This document shows, piece by piece, positions 6,591 to 30,642 of a DNA stretch of 30,642 bases (positions are counted from its first letter, which is position 1; each line of letters begins with the position of its first letter). A program made the position numbers and the translations under genes. This stretch comes from a virus (Duplodnaviria > Caudoviricetes): IMG/VR virus record IMGVR_UViG_3300025128_000209, positions 1 to 30,642 of that record; one strand, given 5' to 3'. A model generated the notes under the pieces. It did not search any database. It had not been told where the DNA came from and saw only the letters and a list, made by a program, of their open reading frames with translations.

Positions 6591-7325
6591 TTATTTCCAT
6601 AATAGTATCCTTACATCCATCCTGTCCCAATCCCTATGGCCATTATCACCATCATAAGTATGAAAAATATTATGAGTTGAATTGAGCCAAACTTTTAATT
6701 CTGTTTCTAATATTTCATAATAAAATCCATCCCAACCTCTTGAATCATTGTCTTGAAGTCTAAAATAAGGAAAAACAGCATTTGTTGCAGCTGTACCATC
6801 GCTTTCTCCGTAAGCATCTCTAACAAAGCATTGGGCAGTTACTATACTTGTCGTTGACAAACCGTGAGTATGGGTAAGTTCTCTTTTAGCCGCATCAGTT
6901 CTATCCATATCAACCCATCCAGTATCATAATCAGGCCTAGGAAGAACAAATTTTTTTGCTTTTTCATCAAATATAGTCTTTTTAGCTTTAGAAGCACCTG
7001 TGCTAGTATCCTCTGTTTCTATCTCATCTATAGATTTTTTAGGTTGATTAGCTTGCCTAGGCTTATCTTTAAAAGTTATTATATTCTCTTGGAATATAGG
7101 TGTTTTCCACCCTGTATCAGTTTTAAATTCAAAGGTATAGGACTTATCTGTATTCATAGTGACTTGCAAATCTCCTGTTTTACCTTCTCTATCTGTTATT
7201 TCTGACTCTGCTTTAGAGTTAACAGACTTTGTCAAATCATTAAACATCTTCTCTATCTCTCTTAAAGATTTCTCAACATCTTGAAAAGATGATATTTTAG
7301 ACTGCAATTTTATAATCTTTTCCAT
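6591..7325 (-). CDS. Putative tail-associated/fibre-like virion protein, 244 aa
   Basis: TAATG-coupled to the nozzle gene; N-terminal coiled coil; C-terminal PDYDTGWVD...LTHTHGL beta-rich segment resembling tail-fibre C-terminal modules. Confidence 0.5.
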   Translation of the reverse strand: MEKIIKLQSKISSFQDVEKSLREIEKMFNDLTKSVNSKAESEITDREGKTGDLQVTMNTDKSYTFEFKTDTGWKTPIFQENIITFKDKPRQANQPKKSIDEIETEDTSTGASKAKKTIFDEKAKKFVLPRPDYDTGWVDMDRTDAAKRELTHTHGLSTTSIVTAQCFVRDAYGESDGTAATNAVFPYFRLQDNDSRGWDGFYYEILETELKVWLNSTHNIFHTYDGDNGHRDWDRMDVRILLWK

Positions 7326-10300
7326 TATTTCACAGCTTTTTTTCTAAATATTATACCAACAGAATCTAAATCTTCAGTCATATTTTCTAATTTGAATTGT
7401 AACCATCTACCTCTTTTATTACTGCTACTAATTTTATACTCAGAATGATTAGAATCTTTAGATGTATAAGATACATCACTTGAAGCTATAGTACCTTCAT
7501 TAGTTGCTAGCAATAATCTATCACTGCTTTCCATATTAGAACCACCTAAATTAACATTATTTGATATAGCATTTAATTTGATTCTATTGAATACTTTGAC
7601 TACTGAATCTTCTCCTGCTGTTATCTTTTTACTTACCCAAGTATAATCTCGTTTTTCTGAGCCACCTCTATGTTTAAATATGGCATTATTTATAGGTATA
7701 TATATTGAACCATCATCACCATGAAAAGGTTTGCCTATCATAGAGTTTTCTGATAATTCCCATAAATCCCACCTTTTATATAAAACATGGTAAGACCATA
7801 TATATTGAATTGATTTAGAGGTTCCATCTGTTTCTGTTCCAAGATAGTTTATTATAAATAAAATAGAAGACATATTGGAGTCATAAGTAACTTTAATATC
7901 ATTGAAATCTGATTTTGATACTATATTATCCCAACTAACATCTTTTATATTATCAGTACCTCCAAAAGTAGTACTAACATCTCCTCCTCTATGTATAGGT
8001 TGAGATATCTTAATAGGCTGGCTTCCATCATGAAAGTAAGCACCATTTTTATCAGCAAAAAACATACCATATTCTGTCACAATAATAGCATCTTTATTGA
8101 TGCAACCAACTCCCTCATAAAAGTCTTCAATAGCTAAATTCTGTTGATTTATTCTATATATAGTATTCGCATCAAACGCATATAATCTACCATTAAAGTT
8201 TGCTAAAGCAGTAGGTTTAGAGTCTAATGTAAGATAATCCCTAACATAGTCAAATACACTAAACATTCCAGGTCTTGACCTAAATATTAAATTACTTGAT
8301 TTTTTAATTCTTTTATGAGAGCAATCAGCAGCAAATAAATATCCGTCTATTTTAGTAGACATCCCGTATTTTAATTGTATTGTATCTAGTAATTCAGACA
8401 TTCCAGTTCTTGCTTCATAACTAGCTCCTAATTCTCCATCATCATTAACAGTCACCTTATAAGCACCATCGCTAAAAGACCAAGCTGTATCTGTTTTAAT
8501 TTCTTTGACTAATTTATATAAATCAAATCCAGAATCTTTTCTATATATACAAACGTGAGATAGTCTTTTGCTATATTGAGCTAATTTTATAGATACTGAT
8601 AATAAACTTCTTGTTACACTATCATTGTAAATCCATGTACCATCGGATAAAGGACCTTCTTGATAACCATCATATATTAGAGATATCTTGTAATGGTAAT
8701 TATTATTTGACAAGAAATAATCACCAGAATCAGCAGTTTCAGATGCTGCTTTTATTTCCACGAATGAATCACCGACAGCAAGAAAAGATGAAGCATCTTC
8801 ATCAGTATCATATCTCGCTATATTCCCTGCTATATTTCCTTTGTCCCAAGAGTTAAATCCACTTCTTATTTCACCTAATTTAGACTGATTGCCTCTCTCC
8901 ATTACAACTGATTCCCATTGATTAGTAGTCCAATCTCCAGGTGTATTAGTAGAAGTAGTATTTGCTACATCAAACGTATCTTCAGTAGCACTAGGTAATG
9001 CTCCTGCTCCTACCTTAACTATATATGTACCATCTTGAGCTGCCGTACTATCACTTTTATGAGTAATACTATCTCCTGCAGAAAGTCTATGGTTAGCACT
9101 AGTTAGTCTGATATCATCAGTATCATCAGCTATGGCGCTAACTTCCCCACCTCTTAATTTTCTCATGTCAAGTCCACCAAAAGTTGTCTTAATAGTTGGA
9201 GTATATATATCAAGCAACATTGGATTAGCAGCAGAAGATTCTCCAGTAGGTAATAATTTCCAATTTCCTATAGTCTCACTAGGAGTTACTGTACTAGCAA
9301 ATCTAAATATTTTAGGATTCACTACTGTAACTTTATAAGAAGCTTCATTGTAATTAACTGTATCAGAGATTTCAACGTAATCATTACTAGTTAAAAAATG
9401 TATATTATCAGTAGTAACTGTAACTAAACTACCACTTCCGCTTATAGAAGCAATAGTCCCTGATTTAGGATACATAGGAGCACCTAATGTAGGGTCTTGC
9501 TTATTAGCATTAGGTAATCCATAAGGTAAAGGTGTTTCTTTTAATAATCTTACTGGAGCAGTACAAACATCTGCATGACTCCATATATAAAAGTAATCAT
9601 TAGCTGCTGGTGCATGACCAAAAGGATAGTGGACATCTAAATAAAGTATCTCACCTTCTGCGGGTGTATAGTTTGGGTCTTCTGAACTTAGATAAGGCCT
9701 AGAGCCTACTATTTGTCTTGTTTGCATAGTTCCTGTAGTTTGGTCTACAATAGTCAAACATGCTCCTGCTAACCTATTAGGTACAGAAGCTATTCCATGT
9801 CTATCTCCATGGTTACATGACGATGAACCATCTCTAGATGTTTGGTGTGTAATTCCTGCATTACTTAACCATTTAAATCCATGATATATATCATCAGCAT
9901 CTGTATCAATAGCTACTACAGGACATAATGTTGCATTTGGATGGTCTGCTACTGCTGTTGAAATATAAGGACTAGAATCTAACTTACCTGCAATTAACAC
10001 ATCCCAATCATCGCCTCCTCTATTCCAAGTATTTGAATTAGTAGTAAATGCTGGAAATCCATCCCAATTATCAGTTGGGGACCCTTGCGCTGGAACATTA
10101 ACTACATCAGGCACATAACTTCCTTCATCTGGATACATAAAGTTTAAATCACATATGTATACATTGGATTTTCCTTCTTCTGTAGGAGAAGCTATAAATA
10201 ATCTATTTGCAAATTGATTATTAACAGCACTATTATTTACGTGATAATGTAATTTATTGCTATTTTTAAGATGATATATTGTATCAGGCATACTAGGAGA

Positions 10301-13300
10301 ATCAACTGCAGTATAATTTCCAACTATTAAATTTTCAAAAGTATTTTCAGACGTATCAAAAGGCCTCATCATATATCCTGCTCTGAAGTTTAATTTATCA
10401 ATCTTATTTAAGATTCCAGGAGAACCCCACCATCCATCTTCAGATTCAACTGATGTATACCAAGTTTTAGTATAATGTCCTCCTGCTCTTTCAGGGTCTT
10501 TAAAAATACTACCATCAGTAGGTTCTGCAGAATTAAAAGAATAATGATATAAGTGCTCCCCCTCTCTGTTTACACCTCTTACCCAGCTTGCTTGATTATC
10601 ACTCCTACCCCAACTAATATGGGAATCATTATACATTTCATAACTAGAAGTATGTGGATGTATCCATCCTGTATCTGGAGTACCATCACCATGTGCATAA
10701 TCAGCTGCACTTAGAGATGTAGTAATTTCACAACTACCAGTTGCTTGACTAGAATCAACACTTACTATATAAGCAGATATACCTCTATTATTAGTTGTTC
10801 TTGCAGAAAAATCAGCACCAGTAGCAGGTAAATTATCAGCAATATCATCATTATTAGCATTCTGTACTTTTGAACTTATAAAGACTAAATCCCCTGCTTG
10901 TAAATTAGCAACATCAGCTTTGGCATCTGATAATACAAAAGTTAATAAATTAATTCCAGATTCTGTTGTATTATCGGACGCTTTAATATCAGTATATTGA
11001 TATCCTTGTTTAGGTTGAAAATCCCCATAATGCATATCAGTACATATGAAGATACATTTATCCATAGAAACACTAGAAGGAGCTTCATGAACTGGATGTG
11101 CTTCCCAGCCTGAATCAGAATCTTCTCTATCTGCATAACCTTGCATTCCCATCCAATTTGCGTCCCAAGAATTACCAACCTGATTGCCCATGGCTTGTAG
11201 TTTACCAGCTCTTCTTCTCCAGTTATCTTCACAACCTCCTATAACTCCTACAGCATGAGCCGATACTCTTTGATGTAAGTTGCCATAAGGATGCTTTAAA
11301 TCAGCAGTAGACTGCATAGATTTACTACTAGGGACTACTACTCCTGTTCCATCTAGTACACCATCTCTATCATTATCTGATACAGGAAAAAGTCCATATT
11401 TAGCTACTTTTATACCAGGGGAATGAGGGAATGAAGCCCATCCAATATTATGCCCAAAATTAAAATAAGGACGACACCAATCGCCTTGAGATTCAGCAGA
11501 CCAACCTCCATTAGTTAAATCTTCACCTACTCTAGTATATATCCATTCAAGCACATGATTGCCTATTACAGTACTGGACCTCCTGGCTCCTTTAAAATAA
11601 GAGTGTGCATCTGCTAATTCATTATATTCTCCAGGAGATTCATAACCATAAAGGTTATGGCTTATAGGAATACTAAACTTTGCATCAAAAGCGTAATTAT
11701 GCCCACCAGTACCAGGGGCATTGTAATATTGTAAATTAAAAGGCCATTTATAAGAACTGTAAGTAGTAGTAGGTGGAGTTCTATCTGCCATATATATAAT
11801 AGCGTTTCCAGCAGTATTAGTAGCATTTGATTTACCGCAAAATAAAAATCTATCACCTTCTCCAAAAGTGCCATCTCCAGCAGGAGAATATTGAATCCAC
11901 AATCTTGTATCAAAATCTTCCGTATCGTTTCCATTGATAGCCTCTGTATCAGGAATAAATGTTGAAGTAGGCCCTTTAGTTTCCAGTATATCAGAAGCTA
12001 TTCCAGAAGGAGCAATACTTGGTGTACTCTCTTCAGACAATCCGCCAAATACTCCTGTAGTTCCACCTATATTGCCATTAACATTATCATTGCTCCATTT
12101 AAATGCTCTATATTCTAAATTCATACTACTTACTTGTAAAGGAGTAGTTAGCCATTCATCATATTTAACTTGTACATCTACTGTTGATATTTGTCCTAAT
12201 GAATTTAGAACATATATTTTTCCACCTCCTATACCTCCATCATCTCCTTTGCTATAGCAAGTAGCTATAGAAGATAAAGGATATGACAATGGAATACTTT
12301 TTTCTATTTTACCTGCAGTATACTCTGTATCTAAAGCTGGAGTTCCACTTCCATCAGTAAGCCTATCTCCAGGAGTAATTCTAAATATAGAGTTATCTCC
12401 TTCTCTTATACCATAATAGTAATAAGGTCTATAACAAATTCTTCCAGTATTACCATCTCTAGCTCCATTTGTTTGAAGGAAGTTGGCATCAGGAGGATTA
12501 GCATCTAAAGTAGTAAATCTTTTACAGACAAATGTATTATCATCCGTTCTAGTAGTTACCACCCAAACTCCTGTTCCAGCCCAAGTATTTGAAGCATCTG
12601 CCCATTCTCTTATTATAAGATTATCGCCTACATCAACGCTATGATTTGTATGGGTAATAGTCAAAACCGAACCTGTGCTAGACGATACTGCTACTAAATA
12701 CTCATGTTCTCCTGCTAAGGCTATCTTAGATAACATAGCAGAACCTTCTGTTCCATATTTATGAACAGTATCTTCATCTTGATATAGTTGATTAGTATTA
12801 TCAGAACCAAATAATTTATGATTAAGATAACCTAACCATTGAGGTGCAGGACTACCAGCAGTGCCTCCTAATCCTATATGTAATTCTCTATTATTCCTTA
12901 TGGCAGAAACTGTATCAGTATCAAAGTCTTGTAAGGCATATAATGATTTAGAGGGACTTGTAAAATCATAACTTAAACCATCTCTATTAAAACAATTTTG
13001 TATTATTTGAAAATCCTTATTACTTCTATTGTAAAGCATTAAATCTTTAGCACCTGAATTATCTAATACTGAAGTAGCTAATATAGGATTCCCAGTATTA
13101 TTATATATTAGAGTACTTTCTAGCAAATCTATCTGTGCTAAACAAAATTTATCTTCATCAGCATCAAGACTACTTGAAAATTCTATATCTAAATCAGATA
13201 TTTTTTCTAAATTTTTTGGTATTGTAAATTCATATTTAAATCTTCTCCAAGTAGTATCTAATGATTCTGATAAATTACTCCCATTAGGTTTATCTAAATC

Positions 13301-15511
13301 GCTAAAATTAATCCATCTTGTTTCTTGTGTTATATTACTAGCTGAAGATGTATAACTTCTATATAATGGGTCAACTATATAACCTTTAGATATTTCTGTA
13401 TTAGCAAGATTCCATTTTCCATTAGAAGAAAAACTTCCTCCATTATAAGTTAAAGATAATGCCCCTTTGGGATTACCATTAACTGATTTAGAGTAGAAAT
13501 ATAAACAATATTCTTGACCTCTTTTTAATAAAGACTTATCAATACTTTGTTTTATAGTATGATTTACATTTACATTAACTTGACTGTCATTTGGAATCTC
13601 TATAGCATTGCTATTATAACCTCTTGCAACGGTTATTTGTCTATTATTGATTGACAAAACTCTCATATATTCAGTGCTAATCTTTATAATATTCCCAGTA
13701 GCTAACTTTAAACTAGCGTCACCGTCTAATGTTATCGTAGATACATCTGGACCTATTGCATTTACTGTATCTGTATCTAAACTTATATCCTCATATTCGC
13801 ATTCAATAGCAAGAACTTCAGGGTTTGCTTGAAATGGATAAAAATTTTCTGAATTATCAGCAGCGGCATTTAAATCTTGACTATCATTATGTGAACCACT
13901 TTTCCAATATCCATCAGTATCCAATCTAGATACCTCTGTATCAGTAGTATCAGCCCAAACATTAGTTATTCCAGTTTTTTGATGCACCCAATCATTAATC
14001 TTATATGCTTTATCGGCTCCTGTATCTTGTGTTGCTGTATCTAATGAATGAAAAAGAGTACAATTTTTTATTAAACTTGATTCGACAAATACTCCTGTTG
14101 CATCAGTTCCATCTAATACATCTGTTACAGGGGCGGTATCCATTGTCCATGTAGTATAACCACCATCAGTTACTGTTTTTAATATAGTACCTGAATATCC
14201 ATGATTTGATGATGCTTCATGCATATAAAATGAAACATTATCTCCTTCATTAAACTCAGGAGCTTGTGTTTTAAACTTAATTGTTTTGTCAGTAGCACTA
14301 AATGTTATTTCATAAGTACTTGATGATACCATATAGCCATTTTTAGCTTTTGTTGCAGTATCAGAAGAATATAACCAATGTCTACCACTACCACCTATAT
14401 TATTACCTGAATAGCTACTCCATTCATATAAGTTACAATAGCCATAATCAGTAGTATAAAATTCATCATTTATTAAATATTTATTAGCATATATATCGTA
14501 GATTGCAGAAGTATATTCTTTTTTCTTAGTTCCAAATAAACCTCTTTGTATTCTAATAGTAGTTCCTGAAGTAGATACTACACGCATTATTTCTGTATTA
14601 TCGCTACTATCTACATTATAAGTAGCAGAAGTCCCTATTAACGAAAAGTATGTACCAGCAGTTAAATAATGTGATACACTTCTTTGAGCTAATTGTAAAT
14701 TAAGAAGTGCAGTAGCTCTAGTCACCGTTATTCTATCTCTATGTCCATTTTCACTATTTAAAGCAGTTTCTATCTCAGCTGCAACACCAGCTAGAGTACT
14801 TTCTCCCTGCACATCAATTCTGGTCCAAGTTCCTCCACTAGTATCTTGTGTGCCACTAGCACCTGAGCCGTCATTATAAAATTTATATATCACTACTCTA
14901 TTATCAGGAGTTGTGATAGTAAATGTATCCCCAGCAAGTTGAGCTGGGTCGTTTTCACCTACTGTTATAGTAGCTACTCCTTCAGTAAATCCACTAATAG
15001 CTATATCTGTAGGGGAACCTGTTATAGTTTGGTCTTCTGATAATATAGTTATTTCAGTATCTGTTGGATTGATTGTAGAAGCTGGTTTATAATTAACATC
15101 TTCATTTGCGGACAGAATTAATTTACGAGCATAAGGTCTAGGGTTGACAGCAGTCAATCTTTCATTTCTTCCTTTAGTTCCTTTAAAAGATAAAGAAGCG
15201 CTATCTTTCCCCTGAAATACATCTAAGTTTATTTTCATAGGAGAACTAAATGAATCACTTCCTCCTGCACCTAATTCAGAGCTATTTTCATTTCCTGAAT
15301 GCCCCCAAGGAATAGGTAAGTCAGAATATGTAAATGCTCCAGACGATAAAGCGAATAATTCATCTGTATTTATAGCACTTAATATTCCACTTTCTGATTC
15401 TGGATTAATGTTTAATGCAAATATAGATGCATCTTCTATTACATCTCTTTCAGAAGCATTTAAAACAGTTCCTTTTATGAAACCTCTTATTTCCTTTAAT
15501 TGCTTAGGCAT
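7325..15511 (-). CDS. Giant tail nozzle/stabilisation protein (P22 gp10/T7 gp12-like termini) with large inserted beta-rich domains, 2728 aa
   Basis: N-terminus MPKQLKEIRGFIKG...ALNINP...GIL and C-terminal GVGCINKDAIIVTEYGMFFADKNGAYFHDGSQPIKISQPI and RGRWLQFKLEN match the pattern of podovirus nozzle beta-propeller proteins; the interior is T/S/D/G/N-rich with repeated small beta modules. Confidence 0.7.
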   Translation of the reverse strand: MPKQLKEIRGFIKGTVLNASERDVIEDASIFALNINPESESGILSAINTDELFALSSGAFTYSDLPIPWGHSGNENSSELGAGGSDSFSSPMKINLDVFQGKDSASLSFKGTKGRNERLTAVNPRPYARKLILSANEDVNYKPASTINPTDTEITILSEDQTITGSPTDIAISGFTEGVATITVGENDPAQLAGDTFTITTPDNRVVIYKFYNDGSGASGTQDTSGGTWTRIDVQGESTLAGVAAEIETALNSENGHRDRITVTRATALLNLQLAQRSVSHYLTAGTYFSLIGTSATYNVDSSDNTEIMRVVSTSGTTIRIQRGLFGTKKKEYTSAIYDIYANKYLINDEFYTTDYGYCNLYEWSSYSGNNIGGSGRHWLYSSDTATKAKNGYMVSSSTYEITFSATDKTIKFKTQAPEFNEGDNVSFYMHEASSNHGYSGTILKTVTDGGYTTWTMDTAPVTDVLDGTDATGVFVESSLIKNCTLFHSLDTATQDTGADKAYKINDWVHQKTGITNVWADTTDTEVSRLDTDGYWKSGSHNDSQDLNAAADNSENFYPFQANPEVLAIECEYEDISLDTDTVNAIGPDVSTITLDGDASLKLATGNIIKISTEYMRVLSINNRQITVARGYNSNAIEIPNDSQVNVNVNHTIKQSIDKSLLKRGQEYCLYFYSKSVNGNPKGALSLTYNGGSFSSNGKWNLANTEISKGYIVDPLYRSYTSSASNITQETRWINFSDLDKPNGSNLSESLDTTWRRFKYEFTIPKNLEKISDLDIEFSSSLDADEDKFCLAQIDLLESTLIYNNTGNPILATSVLDNSGAKDLMLYNRSNKDFQIIQNCFNRDGLSYDFTSPSKSLYALQDFDTDTVSAIRNNRELHIGLGGTAGSPAPQWLGYLNHKLFGSDNTNQLYQDEDTVHKYGTEGSAMLSKIALAGEHEYLVAVSSSTGSVLTITHTNHSVDVGDNLIIREWADASNTWAGTGVWVVTTRTDDNTFVCKRFTTLDANPPDANFLQTNGARDGNTGRICYRPYYYYGIREGDNSIFRITPGDRLTDGSGTPALDTEYTAGKIEKSIPLSYPLSSIATCYSKGDDGGIGGGKIYVLNSLGQISTVDVQVKYDEWLTTPLQVSSMNLEYRAFKWSNDNVNGNIGGTTGVFGGLSEESTPSIAPSGIASDILETKGPTSTFIPDTEAINGNDTEDFDTRLWIQYSPAGDGTFGEGDRFLFCGKSNATNTAGNAIIYMADRTPPTTTYSSYKWPFNLQYYNAPGTGGHNYAFDAKFSIPISHNLYGYESPGEYNELADAHSYFKGARRSSTVIGNHVLEWIYTRVGEDLTNGGWSAESQGDWCRPYFNFGHNIGWASFPHSPGIKVAKYGLFPVSDNDRDGVLDGTGVVVPSSKSMQSTADLKHPYGNLHQRVSAHAVGVIGGCEDNWRRRAGKLQAMGNQVGNSWDANWMGMQGYADREDSDSGWEAHPVHEAPSSVSMDKCIFICTDMHYGDFQPKQGYQYTDIKASDNTTESGINLLTFVLSDAKADVANLQAGDLVFISSKVQNANNDDIADNLPATGADFSARTTNNRGISAYIVSVDSSQATGSCEITTSLSAADYAHGDGTPDTGWIHPHTSSYEMYNDSHISWGRSDNQASWVRGVNREGEHLYHYSFNSAEPTDGSIFKDPERAGGHYTKTWYTSVESEDGWWGSPGILNKIDKLNFRAGYMMRPFDTSENTFENLIVGNYTAVDSPSMPDTIYHLKNSNKLHYHVNNSAVNNQFANRLFIASPTEEGKSNVYICDLNFMYPDEGSYVPDVVNVPAQGSPTDNWDGFPAFTTNSNTWNRGGDDWDVLIAGKLDSSPYISTAVADHPNATLCPVVAIDTDADDIYHGFKWLSNAGITHQTSRDGSSSCNHGDRHGIASVPNRLAGACLTIVDQTTGTMQTRQIVGSRPYLSSEDPNYTPAEGEILYLDVHYPFGHAPAANDYFYIWSHADVCTAPVRLLKETPLPYGLPNANKQDPTLGAPMYPKSGTIASISGSGSLVTVTTDNIHFLTSNDYVEISDTVNYNEASYKVTVVNPKIFRFASTVTPSETIGNWKLLPTGESSAANPMLLDIYTPTIKTTFGGLDMRKLRGGEVSAIADDTDDIRLTSANHRLSAGDSITHKSDSTAAQDGTYIVKVGAGALPSATEDTFDVANTTSTNTPGDWTTNQWESVVMERGNQSKLGEIRSGFNSWDKGNIAGNIARYDTDEDASSFLAVGDSFVEIKAASETADSGDYFLSNNNYHYKISLIYDGYQEGPLSDGTWIYNDSVTRSLLSVSIKLAQYSKRLSHVCIYRKDSGFDLYKLVKEIKTDTAWSFSDGAYKVTVNDDGELGASYEARTGMSELLDTIQLKYGMSTKIDGYLFAADCSHKRIKKSSNLIFRSRPGMFSVFDYVRDYLTLDSKPTALANFNGRLYAFDANTIYRINQQNLAIEDFYEGVGCINKDAIIVTEYGMFFADKNGAYFHDGSQPIKISQPIHRGGDVSTTFGGTDNIKDVSWDNIVSKSDFNDIKVTYDSNMSSILFIINYLGTETDGTSKSIQYIWSYHVLYKRWDLWELSENSMIGKPFHGDDGSIYIPINNAIFKHRGGSEKRDYTWVSKKITAGEDSVVKVFNRIKLNAISNNVNLGGSNMESSDRLLLATNEGTIASSDVSYTSKDSNHSEYKISSSNKRGRWLQFKLENMTEDLDSVGIIFRKKAVK

Positions 15512-15596
15512 CTACATATATCCAGTCTATATCCTTAGATGATACCCAGTAATCTTCTGGAAGTATTATTTGTTTCCGTCTAGTAACTCTCCCCAT
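15504..15596 (-). CDS. Small bridging ORF, 30 aa (MGRVTRRKQIILPEDYWVSSKDIDWIYVDA)
   Basis: Hand-found. GGAG lies 9 nt upstream of the ATG inside the phosphoesterase 3' end; the ORF fills the 54-nt gap and its stop overlaps the nozzle start (ATGCCTAA). Confidence 0.5.
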   Translation of the reverse strand: MGRVTRRKQIILPEDYWVSSKDIDWIYVDA

Positions 15597-16348
15597 ACTG
15601 TTGTTCTCCCGTCTATAATTTGAACTACATCAACAGTAAATCTACCGCCTTTATAGTAATCTACTATCGCAAATGCATGAGCCCACTTATGTTGTCTACC
15701 ACCTAGCCATGCGTTCTTTTCTGAACTCATGTCTTTTAAACAACCTAAAGACCAAGCTGACTTAGGACCATCCATATATGTAACACTATCTTGTTGCAGG
15801 GAATGATGATGTCCATACATTATGTTAGCACCTAGTTTTCTCAGATGATTCGCTGCGTGATATTGTCCGCCAAAATGGTGCCCATGATAAAAATAGAGCT
15901 TTCCTATTTTAAGATACTTTCCTGGTTCATTGTACTTGTATCCTCTATCCTTGAAATTACACACCTTTTCAAAACGATAGTCTAGATAAGGATGCTCTTC
16001 TACGAATCTATCTAACCATTCATCATGATTCCCTGCACAAATATATTTCTTTTTACAGTCTACTTTGTCAAGTGATTCATCTATTATGTCAAGTAACTCA
16101 TTTACTGCTTTTACATCTTCGTCCACTTTTGGCATTATATATTCCAATGGTGGCTTTTTCTTTCTCTTCCATTGCCAATGCGACACGCTAGAGAACTCTC
16201 CTAGGTCACCTAAATCGATGTAAATATTTGGCTTGACCAGTTCTATAGCTTTGCAAACAACATTGATTGCCGCTTTATCATGCAACGGAGCGTGTTTATC
16301 GGGAGTAACAATCGCACGATTGATTACGCCATTGCTTTTCTTTTTCAT
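15566..16348 (-). CDS. Calcineurin-like metallophosphoesterase, 260 aa
   Basis: All five motifs in order: DxH (PDKH), GD (LGDLGE), GNHD/E (GNHDEW), HG (YHGH), GHxH (GHHH). Confidence 0.9.
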   Translation of the reverse strand: MKKKSNGVINRAIVTPDKHAPLHDKAAINVVCKAIELVKPNIYIDLGDLGEFSSVSHWQWKRKKKPPLEYIMPKVDEDVKAVNELLDIIDESLDKVDCKKKYICAGNHDEWLDRFVEEHPYLDYRFEKVCNFKDRGYKYNEPGKYLKIGKLYFYHGHHFGGQYHAANHLRKLGANIMYGHHHSLQQDSVTYMDGPKSAWSLGCLKDMSSEKNAWLGGRQHKWAHAFAIVDYYKGGRFTVDVVQIIDGRTTVWGELLDGNK

Positions 16349-16365
16349 ATATTAAAAAACCTTAC

Positions 16366-16698
16366 TTAATTGAATTCATCTTTAGGACGATAACCCCAAT
16401 CACTCGGGTTAGTCCAATATGCTTTGGCGGATTGTAATTCCTTCTCTGTTTTATCGAGTGTATACTTTAAATACATATAATTACAATCATCACATTCCCA
16501 AAGCAATATGCCATCTTTATCGGCACCCATTACTTCTATTCCAGATACTTCTTCTGATAGACAATGCGGGCAAACTGGAGGAACTGTTTTGAAGATATTA
16601 TATCTAAATTCTTCATCAACAAGTTGCTTCACTAAACTTCCTTTTAGCTCACCCACTAAGTCTACAACTAGAATCATTTTGTTACTAAGCTTATCCAA
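16366..16698 (-). CDS. Zinc-ribbon protein (CPHC...CDDC), 103-110 aa
   Basis: Two CxxC pairs. The track start is TTG at 16698; an alternative ATG lies at 16677. Confidence 0.7.
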   Translation of the reverse strand: MDKLSNKMILVVDLVGELKGSLVKQLVDEEFRYNIFKTVPPVCPHCLSEEVSGIEVMGADKDGILLWECDDCNYMYLKYTLDKTEKELQSAKAYWTNPSDWGYRPKDEFN

Positions 16699-16843
16699 CT
16701 TTATTCTTTATAGCTTCGTAAACTGGTTTAAGAACCATGTCAAATATAACATCGTCTTTTTTTGAAGGCGATAATTTTATAACTTTTTCTAATACATAGA
16801 AAGCTAATAAAATCCATTGCCAATTACCTAGAATCCATTGCAT
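16691..16843 (-). CDS. Small holin-like membrane protein, 50 aa (MQWILGNWQWILLAFYVLEKVIKLSPSKKDDVIFDMVLKPVYEAIKNKVG)
   Basis: Hand-found, below the track cutoff. Strong SD AAGGAG; hydrophobic Trp-rich N-terminus and a (T/S)PxxxDD turn seen in small phage holin-like proteins. Holin function is an inference. Confidence 0.65.
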   Translation of the reverse strand: MQWILGNWQWILLAFYVLEKVIKLSPSKKDDVIFDMVLKPVYEAIKNKVG

Positions 16844-16855
16844 AGGATATTCTCC

Positions 16856-17026
16856 TTATTTGATTAGTTTTTGTAACTTCTTGAGTTTTTTCTCAAGCTT
16901 TGCGACTTTATCATCAAGTTCGTTTGGCTCCTGAACATACTTTTGAATACCATCTAAATCGAACTTTTTCATAATTCGTTTCATAACTAAATCTAATACT
17001 TTTTTTATAATAATTCCTTGTAACAT
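16856..17026 (-). CDS. Small amphipathic/coiled-coil protein, 56 aa (MLQGIIIKKVLDLVMKRIMKKFDLDGIQKYVQEPNELDDKVAKLEKKLKKLQKLIK)
   Basis: Hand-found. AAGGA upstream; fills the gap; heptad-patterned C-terminus. Confidence 0.7.
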   Translation of the reverse strand: MLQGIIIKKVLDLVMKRIMKKFDLDGIQKYVQEPNELDDKVAKLEKKLKKLQKLIK

Positions 17027-17027
17027 T

Positions 17028-17192
17028 TTATTTTTTTTCCTTTAACTGTTTTTTGCAACAATCACATGTAACAAAATCCCTAGGTGAATGAGCTATTTTT
17101 TCTAGAGCTTCCAATCGTTTCCGTAAATCAATATAATCCCGCCTACAAAGACAATTAAGAAACCCAGTAAAAATGCCCCAATCTCTCCCATC
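17028..17192 (-). other. Open, protein-like reading frame lacking an ATG (...DYIDLRKRLEALEKIAHSPRDFVTCDCCKKQLKEKK*), overlapping the 29-aa membrane ORF in the -1 frame
   Basis: 55 codons including TAA at 17030-17028, ending 1 nt before the next ATG; coiled-coil segment plus CxxC. The only candidate start is an internal TTG. Confidence 0.35.
17102..17191 (-). CDS. Single-pass membrane microprotein, 29 aa (MGEIGAFLLGFLIVFVGGIILIYGNDWKL)
   Basis: Hand-found. ATG overlaps the upstream stop (TGATG); continuous ~20-residue hydrophobic helix. Confidence 0.55.
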   Translation of the reverse strand: MGEIGAFLLGFLIVFVGGIILIYGNDWKL

Positions 17193-18246
17193 AGAATCTA
17201 TAATTTACCCCCATGCTTATATTATGTTCTTCTCGTCCATAATAACTTAATTTACTACCCTCAATAAAGACCCCAATATGCTCACTTAGGTTAGCACCAA
17301 CCAGAGTTCCAACGTCATATTGAATGCCATCTCCCTTATAAGACTTCTCTGTCAAGCCCTTTGAATAGGGATATGCATTAACCCAAATATGGGAATAAAA
17401 TCTTTCACCGCCTACATAACAGTCTATACCAATAACTACGCTTATCTCTGCTTGCCATTCTTTAACTTTGTTTTCTTCGTTATATTGCTCTATAATACCT
17501 GGCATATGGTATTCATAAAACTCTGCATCAGAATAAGCGACTGCATTAGAGTCGGGGTCTGTCCAATAATAATCAGCATCCTCATAATAATATTGCCAGA
17601 AACCATCCTCTGTGTCAGGGTCTGTTTCAACCCATAAATAATAACTATCAATTTCTCCATTGTCATTTAAATCATTTAAAGGTACTAAATAATCTTGATA
17701 TCCATACTCATATGCAAGATACCACCAAGGGTCTTCATAGTCCTCATATGCAGGATGTCCATATACTGGATGCCCCATTACATTAGTACCTAAAGATAAG
17801 AATACAGAACCCATAGTAAACTTAACTCTAGTATCTATATATGCAAGTTGTAAGTCTCTACTTTCTTTCTCTAAATACTTAACTTTAGCAATAAAGCGAT
17901 TATTTGACCATTTTAGCCAGTATTCTTGGTCTATGAAGGCATGACCCCTATTTCTTACAGAACTCGCTGAAATGAGGTATTCTAAGCCGTCTACAGCACC
18001 AAATAAAGCATTATCACTGAGTGCTGATTCTTCGCCTTTATAAAATTTCTTTGATGATTGATAAGGAAATAAGGCTATTTTCCTTATACCAATGTTATAT
18101 TTATAGTCATCTTTTAACTCTATATTACCATTTATATAGGGCGTACCCATTGAGCCAGACACATATAAAGTCGAGTTATCAAATAGCCCACCAAAAAGTA
18201 AACTAACATACGTAACCAAATAACATATAATTCTTTCATAAGCCAT
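17191..18246 (-). CDS. Predicted exported outer-membrane beta-barrel protein, 351 aa
   Basis: Signal-peptide-like N-terminus (MAYERIICYLVTYVSLLFG), alternating amphipathic strands, and C-terminal HNISMGVNYRF ending in Phe (BAM beta-signal pattern); acidic/aromatic insert with DLNDNGEID. Confidence 0.65.
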   Translation of the reverse strand: MAYERIICYLVTYVSLLFGGLFDNSTLYVSGSMGTPYINGNIELKDDYKYNIGIRKIALFPYQSSKKFYKGEESALSDNALFGAVDGLEYLISASSVRNRGHAFIDQEYWLKWSNNRFIAKVKYLEKESRDLQLAYIDTRVKFTMGSVFLSLGTNVMGHPVYGHPAYEDYEDPWWYLAYEYGYQDYLVPLNDLNDNGEIDSYYLWVETDPDTEDGFWQYYYEDADYYWTDPDSNAVAYSDAEFYEYHMPGIIEQYNEENKVKEWQAEISVVIGIDCYVGGERFYSHIWVNAYPYSKGLTEKSYKGDGIQYDVGTLVGANLSEHIGVFIEGSKLSYYGREEHNISMGVNYRF

Positions 18247-18482
18247 TACTCTGTACCGCCTTCACCGCTAGAGCCAGTGTTACCTTCCCCTCTATGACGC
18301 CCACCAGAAGTCCCTTCTTTTCCTCTATCTGAATTTACCTCTATAGCGTCATTTTTAAATGTATCTTTACGCTCTCTATCTACACTCTCAGGAGAATAAG
18401 CTTTGGTTAAAGTATGCAAATCAACAGAAACTCTCTTTTTGCCAAATCCTTCTATGTGTTGTATAAACTTGTCTAGTTCCAT
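18246..18482 (-). CDS. Hypothetical protein with Gly/charged low-complexity tail, 78 aa
   Basis: TAATG-coupled at both ends; no recognisable family. Confidence 0.65.
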   Translation of the reverse strand: MELDKFIQHIEGFGKKRVSVDLHTLTKAYSPESVDRERKDTFKNDAIEVNSDRGKEGTSGGRHRGEGNTGSSGEGGTE

Positions 18483-19165
18483 TAAAACCTCCCTGATTCC
18501 TTCTTATTTTCCAGTTTAGTAATTCTTTCTTCTAAGCTTTTAATACTACCTGATAAAATATCTAATTCATACTCTACACCTGACAAATCAACTTCAGGTA
18601 TTTTCTTATTTTTAAGTTTAGCTATCTCTATTTTAATTTCATTTAAATCAGAAGCCAAAGGAGTTAACTTAACTGCTAATTTTTTTATTTCAGTAAAGGT
18701 CTCCTTAAACTCTGTCAGCTGATATGTTATAAGCTTTAAGTCTCCAGTAGACTTAATCAAATCTACTTCACCTTTAAGATAATCATATTCTAATCTATTA
18801 GGACTATTATTAGATTTAAGTTCAGAGATAGAGCCTTGTATACTAAAATATGTAGCACACGCAGAGACTATTACTGCCCCTATTGTAGCCATAAATTTTA
18901 AGTCAAATGTAAATTTACTATCTTCACCTATTTCTGTTGGTTTTGGCACTGATATCTCCTTTTTTTCTTCTATTTTTTCTTTTGACTGTTGATTTAAAAC
19001 ATCACTTATATCATCAACTGTAACATATTTCATTTCAATTAGAACTTTTCCTAGAGGAACAGCTCTGTTGTAATTAATGGCTTCATCAGCCTGCTTACTT
19101 AAAGCCTCTTGTAACTGATTCTTATTAATAATACGATTAAATAATAATAAGTCACCTATTTTCAT
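18482..19165 (-). CDS. MshEN-like domain + single transmembrane helix + coiled-coil protein, 227 aa
   Basis: aa 2-25 KIGDLLLFNRIINKNQLQEALSKQ and aa 37-60 PLGKVLIEMKYVTVDDISDVLNQQ each fit the 24-residue MshEN pattern RLGxxLLxxGLIxxxxLxxxLxxQ; TM aa 91-109 FMATIGAVIVSACATYFSI; heptad-rich C-terminus. Confidence 0.75.
   Translation of the reverse strand: MKIGDLLLFNRIINKNQLQEALSKQADEAINYNRAVPLGKVLIEMKYVTVDDISDVLNQQSKEKIEEKKEISVPKPTEIGEDSKFTFDLKFMATIGAVIVSACATYFSIQGSISELKSNNSPNRLEYDYLKGEVDLIKSTGDLKLITYQLTEFKETFTEIKKLAVKLTPLASDLNEIKIEIAKLKNKKIPEVDLSGVEYELDILSGSIKSLEERITKLENKKESGRF
18947..18961 (-). promoter_or_regulatory. Internal in-frame ribosome-binding site and GTG start within the MshEN-like gene
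   Basis: AAGGAG-ATATCA-GTG at codon 73; would give a 155-aa MPKPTEIGEDSKF... isoform. Confidence 0.5.
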
Positions 19166-19560
19166 TAAAAGTCCTGAGGGACTACTCTGCCAGTAGATAC
19201 ATAATTGCTTCTAGCAAACCTCTTAGCCTTCTTAACACCATCTTGATACCCCCCTGAAAATATCTGAGAGTTTTCCATATTCATATTTCTAGGGTCTAAA
19301 TAACCCATAGATATAACATGCATAGCAATAGCACTATGAAATCTAGAAGGTATATTAGAATAACTACCATCTAAAGTTCCAGCTGCTAAGTCAGTATCAG
19401 TAAATACACCTCTTATTTTAATTCCTTTAGCAGAAGAAACAGTTTTATATTCATCTGTATAACCATCTTGAGTTATAGTATTCTTAGCTTCTTCTACTAT
19501 AGCTATTTTTTCACCTGTACTATGAGTATCTATAAAATAAAATCTTTGAGTTTTTGCCAT
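19165..19560 (-). CDS. Head-tail adaptor/ring-like protein, C-terminal-half-like, 131 aa
   Basis: IPSRFHSAIAMHVISMGY resembles the IPxx(F/Y)HxAIxxxxxxxxY C-terminal helix of podovirus adaptor proteins. Confidence 0.5.
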   Translation of the reverse strand: MAKTQRFYFIDTHSTGEKIAIVEEAKNTITQDGYTDEYKTVSSAKGIKIRGVFTDTDLAAGTLDGSYSNIPSRFHSAIAMHVISMGYLDPRNMNMENSQIFSGGYQDGVKKAKRFARSNYVSTGRVVPQDF

Positions 19561-19562
19561 AA

Positions 19563-19829
19563 TTAAGTCTCGTCATTTATAATAGGATTACCTTGCAATC
19601 TAGGAATCCTAACATCGTTAAAATAAACTTCTTCTATCTTAGTTAAACCAGAAGGAATAGCATACCATCTAAGGTCTGCAGTAGTAGTAATAGACGTATC
19701 TGTTTTCTTATATATTTCAGTTTCTTCACAAAAGTCATCCTTAGCCCTATTAAGGAGTTTGACTATTTCTGTCTCTCCCATATGAGGATGATGTTGTTGA
19801 ACTAATTCTATCATTTCTTTTAATTCCAT
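19563..19829 (-). CDS. Head-tail adaptor/ring-like protein, N-terminal-half-like, 88 aa
   Basis: EIVKLLNRAKDDFCEET...TADLRWYAIPSGLTKIEEV resembles the LNxAxxxF...YxLPxxxxxIxxV N-terminal half of adaptor proteins. Confidence 0.55.
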   Translation of the reverse strand: MELKEMIELVQQHHPHMGETEIVKLLNRAKDDFCEETEIYKKTDTSITTTADLRWYAIPSGLTKIEEVYFNDVRIPRLQGNPIINDET

Positions 19830-23287: not shown

Positions 23288-24691
23288 TTAAGAGAACTTA
23301 AGAATTGCGTGAGTTTCAGGAACGCTAATTTCCAAGCCACATTCAGTGATGATTTGGTCTTGTCGACCATCAACACCATTGTCTTGTACATTAGTTTCAA
23401 TGAAAGTGTCTCGACTAACACCATTACCCGCTAGTGGTCTATAAGCTACATTCTTCATATCAACTGCAACGCAATAGTCTTCCCAAGGACCTCTTAATAA
23501 AGGCTCTTGAACAAAGTGTAAATTACCAAATATAGTATTTACCATTGTTACTGTATGCCCGAAAGCACCAGGGATAGTTTCTACGTCAAGTCTATATTGA
23601 GAAGAACCTACAGAATTATTTAGAAAGCTACCACTACCTAATTTATTTAAGTAAGTAATAACTTTTCTTGAAGCTAATACTAGTTTGTTACCACTATTAC
23701 CAGATTCAGGAGCGAAGAAATCTTCCATCGCATCTAAAAACGCATCATAACCAGATGAAGCATAAGACATATTGTAGATTTTACCATAAGATTCAGTATA
23801 TGGTAATATCCCCCAAGTAGTTCTAGTTGGTACAGTAGCTAAAGCTTCTCTAGAAGCGGCACCTACACCAAATAACATAGCTTGTTCGATATCCATTTTA
23901 TGTTCCATTAACTTGTCTTGCCAGATTCTTTGAAACTCATTAGCAATACCTCTGTACTCAGTAGCTAAAGCTGTTCCAGAGAAGATGTTCATACCAGTTT
24001 TGAAGATTTGACAATATCCTTCTCTGTCAAATAACTTATCTTCCCAACCAATAGGACTATCAGTTCCCTCAGCCCATGCACTACCAATCACTTGACCTTT
24101 ACTAGATGTTGTGAAATCAGTACTAGAATCCCAGTTACCTATAGCATCTGCATGCCAAGTAGTACCTGAGTGAGTATATAGATTAATAGTAGTTTTAGCT
24201 GCATGATGAGTTATAACTACATCACTATGTAGTTTTAATCTTCTTACAACGCCACCATCATCTGCAATAGCAAGTACCTGTCCTGGTAAGATAAACTTAC
24301 AAGGCTGAGATGCTTCTATTTGACCATACTCGTTATAACCGCAAGTTAAATCAAGTTCCAAGTCACTACCTTGTGCTGCGAAAGTTGCAGGATTACCACC
24401 ATCTGTTAATGGGGCTTCATGCACATCACCACCTGTACCTGTCATTGCTGTTTCAACTGTGAAATTACGTCTTTGCCACTGATGCCTTTGTTCAAGAAAT
24501 TTGAACACTGGGTCATTAGTAGCTCTTTTTGCCACCTTCGATAAATATACGAAGAATGGACTTTGAATTGGAGCTAACTCAGCAACTCTCTCACCGAAGT
24601 TAAACTTACGTCTAGTATCGTTTAACGAAACGTTTGAGGCTTGTGCTGTATTAGGTCCACCCATATTCGAAAATATAGTTGCGTTCGCCAT
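23288..24691 (-). CDS. Major capsid protein (HK97 fold, SU10/DUF5309-like), 467 aa
   Basis: Follows portal and scaffold; SPFFVYLSKV, FKFLEQR, GSAWAEG, YCQIFKT, HKMDIEQAMLFG, RTTWGIL, TECGLEISVPETHAIL are typical of this capsid family. Confidence 0.85.
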   Translation of the reverse strand: MANATIFSNMGGPNTAQASNVSLNDTRRKFNFGERVAELAPIQSPFFVYLSKVAKRATNDPVFKFLEQRHQWQRRNFTVETAMTGTGGDVHEAPLTDGGNPATFAAQGSDLELDLTCGYNEYGQIEASQPCKFILPGQVLAIADDGGVVRRLKLHSDVVITHHAAKTTINLYTHSGTTWHADAIGNWDSSTDFTTSSKGQVIGSAWAEGTDSPIGWEDKLFDREGYCQIFKTGMNIFSGTALATEYRGIANEFQRIWQDKLMEHKMDIEQAMLFGVGAASREALATVPTRTTWGILPYTESYGKIYNMSYASSGYDAFLDAMEDFFAPESGNSGNKLVLASRKVITYLNKLGSGSFLNNSVGSSQYRLDVETIPGAFGHTVTMVNTIFGNLHFVQEPLLRGPWEDYCVAVDMKNVAYRPLAGNGVSRDTFIETNVQDNGVDGRQDQIITECGLEISVPETHAILKFS

Positions 24692-24759: not shown

Positions 24760-25689
24760 TTACTTCCAAGGGTTTTTACTATTAAAATTCCCTATCATTG
24801 TATCCATAATCTTATCTTCCATTGTCCTTCCATCAACATTAGTATTCCCAGAAGGCATTACTCCCATAGGAGATGGTACTTGCTGAGCATTCTGTGTTTG
24901 AGTAAAAGCTTCACTAGGTGCAGGAGCATTTTGTGGTGGCTGTTGAGCGTTACCACTTCCTTGCAACCTATATAATTGGACAAGATTATCGATTGTTATT
25001 GAATTAGGGTCTGACATTTTTTTCATAAAATCTACAGCTTCACCTTCCTGCATACCATAATGTCCTGTTAATCTAGATTTAATCTCATTAGCTTGTTGAG
25101 CTTGTTGCTGTTGAGCTTGCGCTCTTTTTACATTATTAACTCGCTCTTGTTCCATTTGATTAAATTTATCCTCTATAATAGCAGTATTGTATTCAGATTT
25201 AAGTGTGTTGTATTCATTCATGTCATCACGCCATCCTTCTAACTCATCATTAAACCTAGCACTATTGCTAGAGGGGTCACTATAAGCTTCCTCTCTATTA
25301 TAATCTCTAGGTCGTTGTGGTTTCTCAGGCGGAGGAGGAAAACTATCAGCTTTATATTGAGGTTCAACAGGTGCTTGCGGTTGTGCTTGCGGTTGTTGAG
25401 CTTGTTGTGTCTGCTGTTTCACTGCTGCCAACTCATTCTTATATTTATCTGCTTGAGATTGCCAGTATTGATAGCGAGTTTCATCATTATTAGGTTGATT
25501 ATTTCCTTCTGTACTTACCTCAGGTTGTCCTTGCGGAGCTGGTTCAGTACTACCTTCATTACCACTAGTAAAAGCACTTGAAACATTATCATTAGAGCCC
25601 TCACCGCCAAATACTGCTTCTTCTAAAGAGGCAAATTCATTTGCGCTTTCTTGAGGGGTATCTTGTTGTATATTGTTATCTTGTGTCAT
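24760..25689 (-). CDS. Capsid scaffolding protein, 309 aa
   Basis: Between portal and capsid; acidic/Q/P-rich disordered N-terminus, RYQYWQSQADK followed by coiled coil; SD AAGGAG. Confidence 0.75.
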   Translation of the reverse strand: MTQDNNIQQDTPQESANEFASLEEAVFGGEGSNDNVSSAFTSGNEGSTEPAPQGQPEVSTEGNNQPNNDETRYQYWQSQADKYKNELAAVKQQTQQAQQPQAQPQAPVEPQYKADSFPPPPEKPQRPRDYNREEAYSDPSSNSARFNDELEGWRDDMNEYNTLKSEYNTAIIEDKFNQMEQERVNNVKRAQAQQQQAQQANEIKSRLTGHYGMQEGEAVDFMKKMSDPNSITIDNLVQLYRLQGSGNAQQPPQNAPAPSEAFTQTQNAQQVPSPMGVMPSGNTNVDGRTMEDKIMDTMIGNFNSKNPWK

Positions 25690-27917: not shown

Positions 27918-27947
27918 AATTTACGAACTACATAGTCATCCAATCAA
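27918..27947 (-). promoter_or_regulatory. Possible promoter giving a leaderless portal mRNA
   Basis: TTGATT (27947-27942), 18-nt spacer, TAAATT (27923-27918), then 6 nt to the ATG; no SD is evident before the portal start. Confidence 0.3.
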
Positions 27948-30414: not shown

Positions 30415-30641
30415 TAATAATTAAAAGCCTCATTACCTTGTTCATTTACTACATTGCTTTGCATACTAGGCATAAGTTTATTTACTCTGTTTCTAGTAGC
30501 ATCATCTGGGTCTGTATGATGAAACTTATAATAAGCATTCTGTCTAGCCTCCATATCACCTTTTCCTATTAAATTGAGCAAACTATCAGAGCCTGACTGA
30601 GCAAATGTATTAGCTAAGAACATAGCATTTGCCTGCTCATC
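30414..30641 (-). CDS. 5'-truncated hypothetical protein (C-terminal 75 aa visible)
   Basis: The frame stays open upstream of the track ATG to the window edge (...DEQANAMFLANTFAQ...), so the true start probably lies outside the window; its stop is TAATG-coupled to the next gene. Confidence 0.65.
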   Translation of the reverse strand, partial: DEQANAMFLANTFAQSGSDSLLNLIGKGDMEARQNAYYKFHHTDPDDATRNRVNKLMPSMQSNVVNEQGNEAFNY

Positions 30642-30642
30642 A

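Follow-up and report, generated by a model that had tools for sequence, protein, structure and literature searches.

The stretch analyzed here, hereafter the window, is the whole of the IMG/VR virus record IMGVR_UViG_3300025128_000209 (G000 among our genomes), a linear contig of 30,642 bp from an uncultured marine phage of the Caudoviricetes that is 59% complete according to CheckV. We are concerned with a cassette at positions 15504-19165, where ten open reading frames (ORFs) on the minus strand, which carries all long ORFs of the window, are packed with gaps or overlaps of a few bases; an initial annotation of the sequence had counted nine or ten such genes. Two of the ORFs, encoding proteins of 227 and 351 residues, form an obligate pair that does not assort independently. 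Judging from sequences and structural models, we see about an even chance that the cassette is a late lysis region in which the 227/351 pair acts as a lipoprotein-free analogue of the spanins. The predicted places of the two proteins, the inner membrane with a periplasmic helical tail for the 227-residue protein and an outer-membrane barrel for its partner, fit a pair that spans the cell envelope.

The genetic linkage of the pair was followed with a profile built from 20 members of the 227 family (alignment A2; the window and 19 loci), which retrieved 80 viral loci. At 72 of these loci the 227 gene is followed by the barrel gene on its own strand, the remaining eight being cut by the contig end, and every one of the 51 loci with at least 1500 bp of downstream sequence has it. 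The independent assortment that the initial annotation had named as counter-evidence was therefore not seen. The gap between the two genes ranges from 2 to 1204 bp (median 29 bp), and the larger gaps hold unrelated inserts, such as the 78-residue ORF of the window, ORFs of 400 and 244 residues, runs of small, strongly basic proteins and a 323-residue gene, present in L067 and L068, with weak SLT matches (E = 0.002, below the cut-off). By tblastn over 24 related loci, the 351-residue protein was found in all 24 and the 227-residue protein in 22, the remaining two loci being cut; the proteins of 260, 50, 56 and 29 residues were found in 15, 14, 13 and 10, those of 110 and 30 residues in 5 each, that of 28 residues in 2, and that of 78 residues in an identical contig alone.

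The module moves as a unit. It follows the adaptor-like genes in genomes of the window type, lies behind the phosphoesterase gene and before giant tail genes at most loci, and sits between the large terminase gene (TerL) and the portal gene in L006, L009, L019 and L108, a region that is the endolysin slot in other genomes of the same groups. In divergent loci, the module proteins are about twice as similar to those of the window as the capsid and portal proteins are (55-87% versus 29-47% identity), which suggests either exchange of the module between lineages or strong constraint. Correlations of family distances (r = 0.69 for 227/351; 0.33-0.49 for the phosphoesterase with the others) were set aside, as kinship alone can give them.

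The 227 gene (18482-19165) encodes an MshE-type domain, a membrane helix and a helical tail. Residues 2-60 match the NCBIfam model NF053729.1, titled 'cyclic di-GMP-binding domain, MshE-related' (E = 1.7e-10; 40.5 bits at a cut-off of 38), and the A2 profile matches the N-terminal domains of PilF (E = 1.4e-4), PilB (E = 0.0069) and MshE (E = 0.033) in the PDB. A juxtamembrane 'IGEDSKFTFDLKF' is conserved, a single hydrophobic, membrane-helix-like stretch covers residues ~91-109, and the C-terminal half of ~118 residues is helical and ends in an Arg-Phe (RF) that is invariant in A2. The three-part architecture assigned by the initial annotation was upheld by the model match above the cut-off and by the helix at 91-109. 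A lipobox reading of the 'VSAC' within the membrane helix was rejected, its cysteine being replaced in 6 of the 20 aligned members.

As in the MshEN domains of MshE, PilB, PilF and NfrB, in the part of PMC5013675 covered here, two tandem helix-turn-helix-like motifs of 24 residues stand at the N-terminus. In the phage protein, by contrast, a membrane helix and a coiled coil follow the domain in place of an ATPase or a glycosyltransferase, the guanine-stacking arginine at position 1 is replaced by Lys or Pro, and the spacer is 11 residues long instead of 5. The sequences were scored for a relaxed form of the two 24-residue cyclic di-GMP (c-di-GMP) motifs of Wang et al. (2016), separated by a 5-residue spacer. 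The window copy, with Arg or Lys at position 10 and the 11-residue spacer, matches neither motif; among 64 distinct family members, 5 match twice, 40 once and 19 not at all. The MshE-type domain is optional across lineages and degenerate in the window copy. Because of this degeneracy and the absence of the domain from one lineage, gating by c-di-GMP is possible in some relatives and unsupported here, and so is the nucleotide gating suggested by the initial annotation. A near-invariant methionine of the family (window residue 75, ~18941-18943) coincides with the start of forms that have no MshE-type domain (the 113-residue form of L257, and P0275), which hints at an internal start in the relatives; the window copy has Lys-Pro at this place.

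The 351 gene (17191-18246) encodes a predicted outer-membrane barrel. We modeled it with AlphaFold2 (AF2) on an alignment of 36 family members (A1), comprising the window, 17 of the 24 loci and 18 of 120 listed proteins, with truncated loci left out. The model (predicted local distance difference test, pLDDT, 75.1; predicted template modeling score, pTM, 0.60) consists of an N-terminal helix and twelve long strands. The leading Foldseek matches are all outer-membrane barrels, and an independent VIA-align comparison with 48,161 chains gave EstA (Z 14.8, root-mean-square deviation 3.7 over 197 residues), NalP (Z 14.2), KdgM and NanC (both 13.9) and Tsx (13.2), all of which are 12-strand barrels. 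The dyad hydrophobicity of the strands is 2.32 against 1.37 ± 0.30 for shuffled strands (maximum 2.48 in 1000 shuffles), exceeding at least 997 of the 1000. The protein begins with a signal-peptide-like N-terminus and ends in ..GVNYRF with a terminal Phe. The prediction thus has what is expected of an outer-membrane barrel, namely a closed barrel, strands whose dyad pattern faces the lipid and an aromatic residue at the C-terminus, and on this basis the barrel assignment of the initial annotation stands.

Two parts of the predicted barrel stand out. The segment 57-86, 30 residues long, is highly conserved and modeled with low confidence, and would face the periplasm by strand parity. The 97-residue insert at 164-260 carries a net charge of -25 and 25 aromatic residues, and is predicted to face outward. 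The family counts 342 relatives at E <= 0.001. Its 36 aligned members gave nothing relevant in Pfam at E = 10, and PF24653 (Phage_OMP), suggested by look-alikes in the Atlas, does not match the window. A pattern scan of 185,579 species genomes returned 209 pattern matches, none of which was confirmed, and no cellular homologue. A C-terminal Arg-Phe is common to the 227 family (..GRF), the barrel (..N[YW]RF) and some relatives of the 56-residue protein (..ARF, ..PRF, ..ERF; in L051, L086, L087, L099 and L102); the window's own endings lie at 17191-17196 and 18482-18487. The thioredoxin-like proteins of other lineages end in ..GDVF.

More distant relatives place the 227 family beside outer-membrane-type proteins of different kinds. 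A search of 1.84 billion representatives with the A2 profile gave 795 matches at E <= 0.001, mostly bacterial proteins with repeated MshEN-type motifs. Six matches share the 227 architecture, namely an MshE-type domain, a 'SEDTKF' juxtamembrane motif, a membrane helix and a coiled coil, and P0275 has no N-terminal MshE-type domain. With an alignment of these six (A4), which is homologous to A2 (hhalign 99.4%, E = 8.4e-22), 61 viral loci from large marine phages were reached, on contigs of up to 131 kb. Their gene order is a barrel of ~428 residues, a lipoprotein, the MshE-type/membrane/coiled-coil protein and an exported thioredoxin-like protein. The barrel is homologous to that of the window (hhalign 99.94%, E = 8.3e-37; 35% identity over 343 columns); of the 56 loci whose upstream sequence spans 2600 bp or more, 51 have it upstream. 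Downstream of the cluster, L198 (7100-9200) and L228 (7280-8430) carry several type IV pilin-like genes (N-terminal 'GFTLIELIMV') and a TadE-like gene, and this stretch also encodes a membrane protein whose C-terminal half resembles a cyclic-nucleotide-binding domain. A homologue of the pilin occurs in 15 of the 61 loci.

In a third lineage, the family is represented by a 113-residue form that starts at the juxtamembrane motif and has no MshE-type domain (hhalign to A2 92.6%, E = 4.5e-7). In L257, where its gene lies at 4992-5333, the string opens with two small lipobox proteins (66 and 75 residues), the 113-residue protein and a thioredoxin-like protein, continues with three small membrane or coiled-coil proteins, a homologue of the window's 50-residue protein (p50), a second p50-like protein and an M15 endolysin, and ends with a large protein whose N-terminus resembles, by eye and unaligned, that of the 2728-residue protein of the window. 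Of the 28 loci of this lineage, 21 retain at least 3 kb downstream; the thioredoxin-like gene comes next in all 21, p50-type genes occur in 14, small lipoproteins in 10, an endolysin 1.5-2.5 kb downstream in 9, and a barrel in none. The membrane/coiled-coil family always has an outer-membrane-type neighbor, a barrel, a lipoprotein or both, and a lipoprotein neighbor goes with a plain lysis cassette. The A2 profile found nothing in the Pelagibacter phage HTVC008M or the Prochlorococcus phage P-SSM2, and the search has no positive control from a cultured phage.

In line with the initial annotation, neither an endolysin nor a lipoprotein of the outer-membrane spanin (o-spanin) kind was recognizable in the window by Pfam, PHROG or a lipobox scan. 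Since relatives encode endolysins elsewhere, the missing endolysin is a property of an incomplete contig and not of the phage group. An M15 endolysin (phrog_465, E ~1e-38) lies between terminase and portal in G002, overlaps the start of the phosphoesterase gene in G003, where members of the p56 and p50 families (those of the window's 56- and 50-residue proteins) follow, is also found in G004, and abuts the 227 gene in L016; in G005, a lysozyme of T4 type (PF00959, E = 1e-13) is encoded two genes ahead of the terminase. A lipobox regular expression run over five relatives (83-100% complete) produced no credible lipoprotein spanin, as its matches fell inside or antisense to large genes, or in the membrane helix of the 227 family, where the cysteine is not conserved. 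Of the conventional lysis set elsewhere in the genome, which the initial annotation had named as counter-evidence, relatives have the endolysin, of M15 type in four loci and of T4 type in one, but no lipoprotein spanin was found in the five relatives.

These five relatives encode almost no membrane proteins outside the cassette. The M15 endolysin, as read from its sequence, has no export signal and needs a holin somewhere, and the best holin candidates of these genomes lie in the cassette. One is the holin-like 50-residue protein (16691-16843), with a moderately hydrophobic N-terminus, the stretch of which stays under the 1.6 hydropathy threshold, and a conserved 'KLSPSKKDD'. Its family, p50, has 465 relatives, none of them named, comes after the barrel in 38 of the 42 loci having enough DNA, and abuts the M15 endolysin in L162, L182 and L257-type loci. 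Another is the single-helix membrane peptide of 29 residues (17102-17191; Kyte-Doolittle hydropathy 2.88 over 19 residues, in keeping with its initial annotation), the start of which overlaps the stop of the barrel gene by one base. Next to them, the 56-residue protein (16856-17026) has a net charge of +7 and combines an amphipathic N-terminal helix with a coiled coil; its family, p56, numbers 35 distinct members of 56-106 residues with net charges of 0 to +15, and stands after the barrel in 40 of the 42 loci.

The surroundings of the endolysin were surveyed in 80 loci kept from 574 confirmed relatives of the M15 family (77-100% identity). A cassette member abuts the endolysin in 19 of the 80: p56 lies directly upstream in 12, the string endolysin-phosphoesterase-p56-p50 occurs in 4, p50-endolysin-phosphoesterase in 2 and endolysin-phosphoesterase in 1. 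The other 61 loci have just terminase and/or portal, or nothing, within 5 kb. The slots of the M15 endolysin vary among L118-L197 (before, after or between terminase and portal), and the family behaves as a mobile lysis gene common to many marine phages. An 82-residue membrane/coiled-coil protein beside the endolysin of L152 shows no homology to the 227 family.

The trans-envelope pair that the initial annotation had proposed is supported by obligate linkage, by fitting predicted places, by lysis-gene context and by the lack of a conventional spanin in the five relatives; its gating found no support. As a working mechanism, the 50-residue protein, perhaps together with the 29-residue peptide, would act as the holin that releases a cytoplasmic endolysin late in infection. 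The inner membrane would hold the 227-residue protein, N-terminus inside and C-terminus outside, so that its helical half lies in the periplasm; the charges flanking its helix give no cue to this orientation. The barrel would be exported through its signal-like N-terminus and inserted into the outer membrane by host machinery. The two would be joined across the periplasm, the barrel segment 57-86 and the invariant C-terminal RF of the 227-residue protein being candidate contacts. After cleavage of the wall by the endolysin, disruption or fusion of the membranes would fall to the pair, in the manner of spanins. The cationic 56-residue protein may be a regulator or a second membrane-active factor, and the MshE-type domain an optional cytoplasmic regulatory addition. 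A complex prediction for the barrel (residues 22-351) with the tail of its partner (108-227) returned 'no answer' with a score of 0.00 and was used neither way.

Several observations weigh against a spanin role. The 351-residue protein has no lipobox cysteine, the defining feature of an o-spanin. Spanins are fast-evolving, and the barrels of divergent loci are 55-87% identical to that of the window, as against 29-47% for capsid and portal. The predicted outward-facing acidic insert of 97 residues is unaccounted for by such a role. No endolysin was recognized in the window (59% complete) or in G001, its longer twin (83% complete). Neither member of the pair lies within 5 kb of the endolysin in any of the 80 M15 loci, and among the 80 loci of the 227 family only L016 has an endolysin within 4 kb. 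As the pair so rarely adjoins an endolysin in the podophage-type lineages, its link to lysis runs through its neighbors and through other lineages. In some large phages, moreover, the neighbors of the cluster are genes for type IV pilin-like proteins and not lysis genes.

The cassette could also be a lysis region in which the 56-residue protein, as a disruptin-like peptide, or another small protein breaks the outer membrane and leaves timing, sensing or anchoring to the pair. Beyond its charge and amphipathic helix, the 56-residue protein of the window falls within the screen for disruptin candidates (<80 residues, at least +4) given in the part of bioRxiv 10.1101/515445 covered here, and its family, p56, is the cassette member most often beside the endolysin, with its 12 direct cases and the four longer strings. 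The spread of p56 charge down to zero and of its length up to 106 residues shows, however, that the cationic character is not conserved. This explanation would also leave the strictly linked and deeply conserved pair without a role, and in the lineage that has no barrel, the membrane/coiled-coil homologue stays in the company of lipoproteins, as is typical of spanins. We regard a disruptin-like mechanism as unlikely.

In another alternative, the pair remodels the cell surface: the acidic loop would mask or mimic a receptor, protecting infected cells or keeping progeny from adhering to debris, and the 227-residue protein would be its regulator. The barrel, itself more conserved than the capsid genes, is predicted to expose on its outer face a large and highly conserved insert of acidic and aromatic character, and many uncultured phages encode porin-, Ail- or autotransporter-type barrels. 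Yet the pair is situated within the late structural gene string, on the same strand and with no promoter or terminator signal above chance, it travels with endolysin-linked genes, and its 227 homologue persists inside the endolysin cassette of the barrel-less lineage. Such a remodeling or exclusion device, to which the receptor blocker raised by the initial annotation belongs, appears to us to have a low probability.

A further alternative, very improbable in our view, assigns the pair to an envelope machine of the pilus or secretion kind, borrowed from type II secretion or type IV pilus systems to export something or to tamper with host pili. In its favor, the N-terminal domain is of the kind found on the PilB, PilF and MshE ATPases, and the pilin-like and TadE-like genes lie a few kilobases downstream in L198 and L228, with the pilin homologue in its quarter or so of the large-phage loci (15/61). 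Against it, neither the window nor any of the five near-complete podophage-type relatives yielded an ATPase, platform protein, secretin or pilin gene, one lineage does without the MshE-type domain, and the barrel matches 12-strand porins and autotransporter barrels, not secretins.

The phosphoesterase of the cassette (15566-16348; 260 residues, no signal peptide) was correctly named in the initial annotation. It matches phrog_221 (E = 7.1e-27), and in an AF2 model with a pLDDT of 88 it shows the calcineurin-like fold together with the motifs DxH, GD, GNH[DE], H and GHxH; the metal-site residues D17, H19, D45, G47, D48, N107, H108, H180 and H182 are invariant in 22 sequences. Foldseek returned generic matches to Vps29, purple acid phosphatase, LpxH and SbcD (E = 3e-7 to 1e-5), and there was no sequence match in the PDB and none to Pfam's own model. 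The fold is generic and points to no particular subfamily or substrate. The gene is found at 57 of the 80 loci that carry a 227 homologue: it lies upstream of that homologue at 51, abutting it at 26, and downstream at 6, the arrangement of the window. By linkage it is a regular member of the module. The initial annotation had called the phosphoesterase link the weakest part of its scheme; a role for the enzyme is unsupported, but its linkage is regular.

The remaining ORFs of the cassette are less widely shared. The hydrophilic 78-residue ORF (18246-18482) fills the variable slot between the 227 and 351 genes; it was seen elsewhere in the identical contig L002 alone, other loci having unrelated inserts or none in this slot. 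The 28-residue, Cys-rich ORF (17028-17114, TTG start) is a doubtful gene. It resembles the Cys-rich C-terminal tail of longer p56 members, such as that of L087, yet lies upstream of the 56-residue gene, and may be the remnant of a rearrangement. The 110-residue protein (16366-16698, TTG start) has four cysteines (CPHC ... CDDC) and is confined to window-type loci and L087; the Zn-ribbon label given to it initially is favored by scores that stay below the cut-off (Zn_ribbon_IS1595, E = 0.0024 for the window and 4.4e-5 for the G005 homologue). The 30-residue ORF (15504-15596) overlaps the phosphoesterase gene at its end and the 2728-residue gene at its start, and has tblastn matches of 50-70% identity in L003, L004, L005 and L021 and of 100% in the identical L002.

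The window has a G+C content of 29-39%, and Pfam or PHROG recognizes in it, all on the minus strand, the large terminase (27928-29427), a P22-type portal (25689-27911) and an SU10-type major capsid protein (23288-24691), as well as a Laminin_G_3 protein. G001, a contig of 42,811 bp, shares genes that are 99-100% identical to those of the window, and G005 (91% complete, barrel 87% identical) is the closest near-complete relative. The 50,697 records of cultured phages gave no match, either by blastn of the region or by tblastn of the 351- and 227-residue proteins. The nearest capsid and terminase relatives among cultured phages reach at most 29% identity, too little to infer a host.

The cassette was initially described as wedged between adaptor and nozzle genes. 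The adaptor-like region (19165-19829) consists of two conserved ORFs of 88 and 131 residues in different frames, 2 nt apart. The former matches SU10_adaptor (PF24175) at E = 3.4e-4, below the cut-off, which lends the adaptor label weak support, and the latter has no such match. The nozzle label was not recovered, as the 2728-residue protein downstream (7325-15511, minus strand) has no Pfam, PHROG or PDB sequence match; only its first ~120 residues and some internal stretches are common to relatives. The same searches found nothing for the giant protein at 1-4911 (minus strand), which has at least 1637 residues in the window and 3687 in G001. A scan of the region for promoters and terminators gave counts at chance level. 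Upstream of the terminase, a 233-residue gene ends in the window at 30415-30642 and is complete in G001 (L026:4626-5327). It occupies the slot of the G005 lysozyme and is unrelated to the 323-residue insert of L067. By eye it shows 'ES..NP.A....SAKG.YQF', and its reading as a lytic transglycosylase found no support in Pfam, PHROG or the PDB. Three paralogous 2OG-Fe(II) oxygenases are encoded in the early region of the complete relative G002 (L031; 3126-3896, 10555-11265 and 11265-11843).

The comparison with known systems begins with the two-component spanins, of which lambda Rz/Rz1 is the example in the part of PMC6139136 covered here. The inner protein is likewise predicted to have one N-proximal membrane helix and a helical periplasmic part and is encoded beside the gene for a predicted outer-membrane protein; the two genes are 'separated', at times with other genes inserted between them, as are some spanin pairs in the covered part of the same source (PMC6139136); and the phages concerned have no other spanin candidate. 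The outer partner, on the other hand, is a predicted barrel of 351 residues with no lipobox instead of a short lipoprotein, the inner partner bears a presumably cytoplasmic MshE-type domain of 90 residues, and sequence conservation is high. The cassette proteins show no homology to the spanin families of Pfam, PHROG and NCBIfam, and because its outer partner has no lipobox, the pair is not a member of these families.

In the description available from part of bioRxiv 10.1101/515445, the phiKT gp28 disruptin is, like the 56-residue protein, a cationic protein of 56 residues with an amphipathic helix from a spanin-less phage, a likeness of description. The p56 family differs in its conserved coiled-coil half, its variable charge and its co-occurrence with a candidate envelope-spanning pair. 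The 351-residue protein, finally, resembles the 12-strand barrels NalP, EstA, NanC, KdgM and Tsx in predicted fold and strand number, and departs from them in having neither a passenger domain nor a Pfam family, and in the 97-residue acidic insert within one loop.

According to the covered part of Kongari et al. (2018; PMC6139136), about one in seven phages of Gram-negative hosts (91 of 677) has no recognizable spanin. In the literature covered here, the disruptin is the only spanin alternative described (bioRxiv 10.1101/515445, seen in part). Full-text literature searches, judged by titles and the openings of abstracts, turned up neither a barrel-type spanin partner nor a phage-encoded MshE-type domain. 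Within the literature so searched, this would be the first mention of such a domain in a phage. Marine viral contigs of 42-55 kb and others exceeding 100 kb carry the pair, and several very abundant ocean-phage genes that are unnamed in any source gain an annotation. We advance, as a tentative wider proposal, that at least two very different kinds of ocean phage breach the host outer membrane by means of a spanin that has no lipoprotein, in which an inner-membrane coiled coil docks on a 12-strand barrel assembled by the β-barrel assembly machinery (BAM), and that in many lineages a c-di-GMP-type sensor domain couples lysis to host signaling. If true, a barrel-anchored, lipoprotein-free pair would be a third solution to the problem of the outer membrane and, with 342 barrel relatives, a common one.

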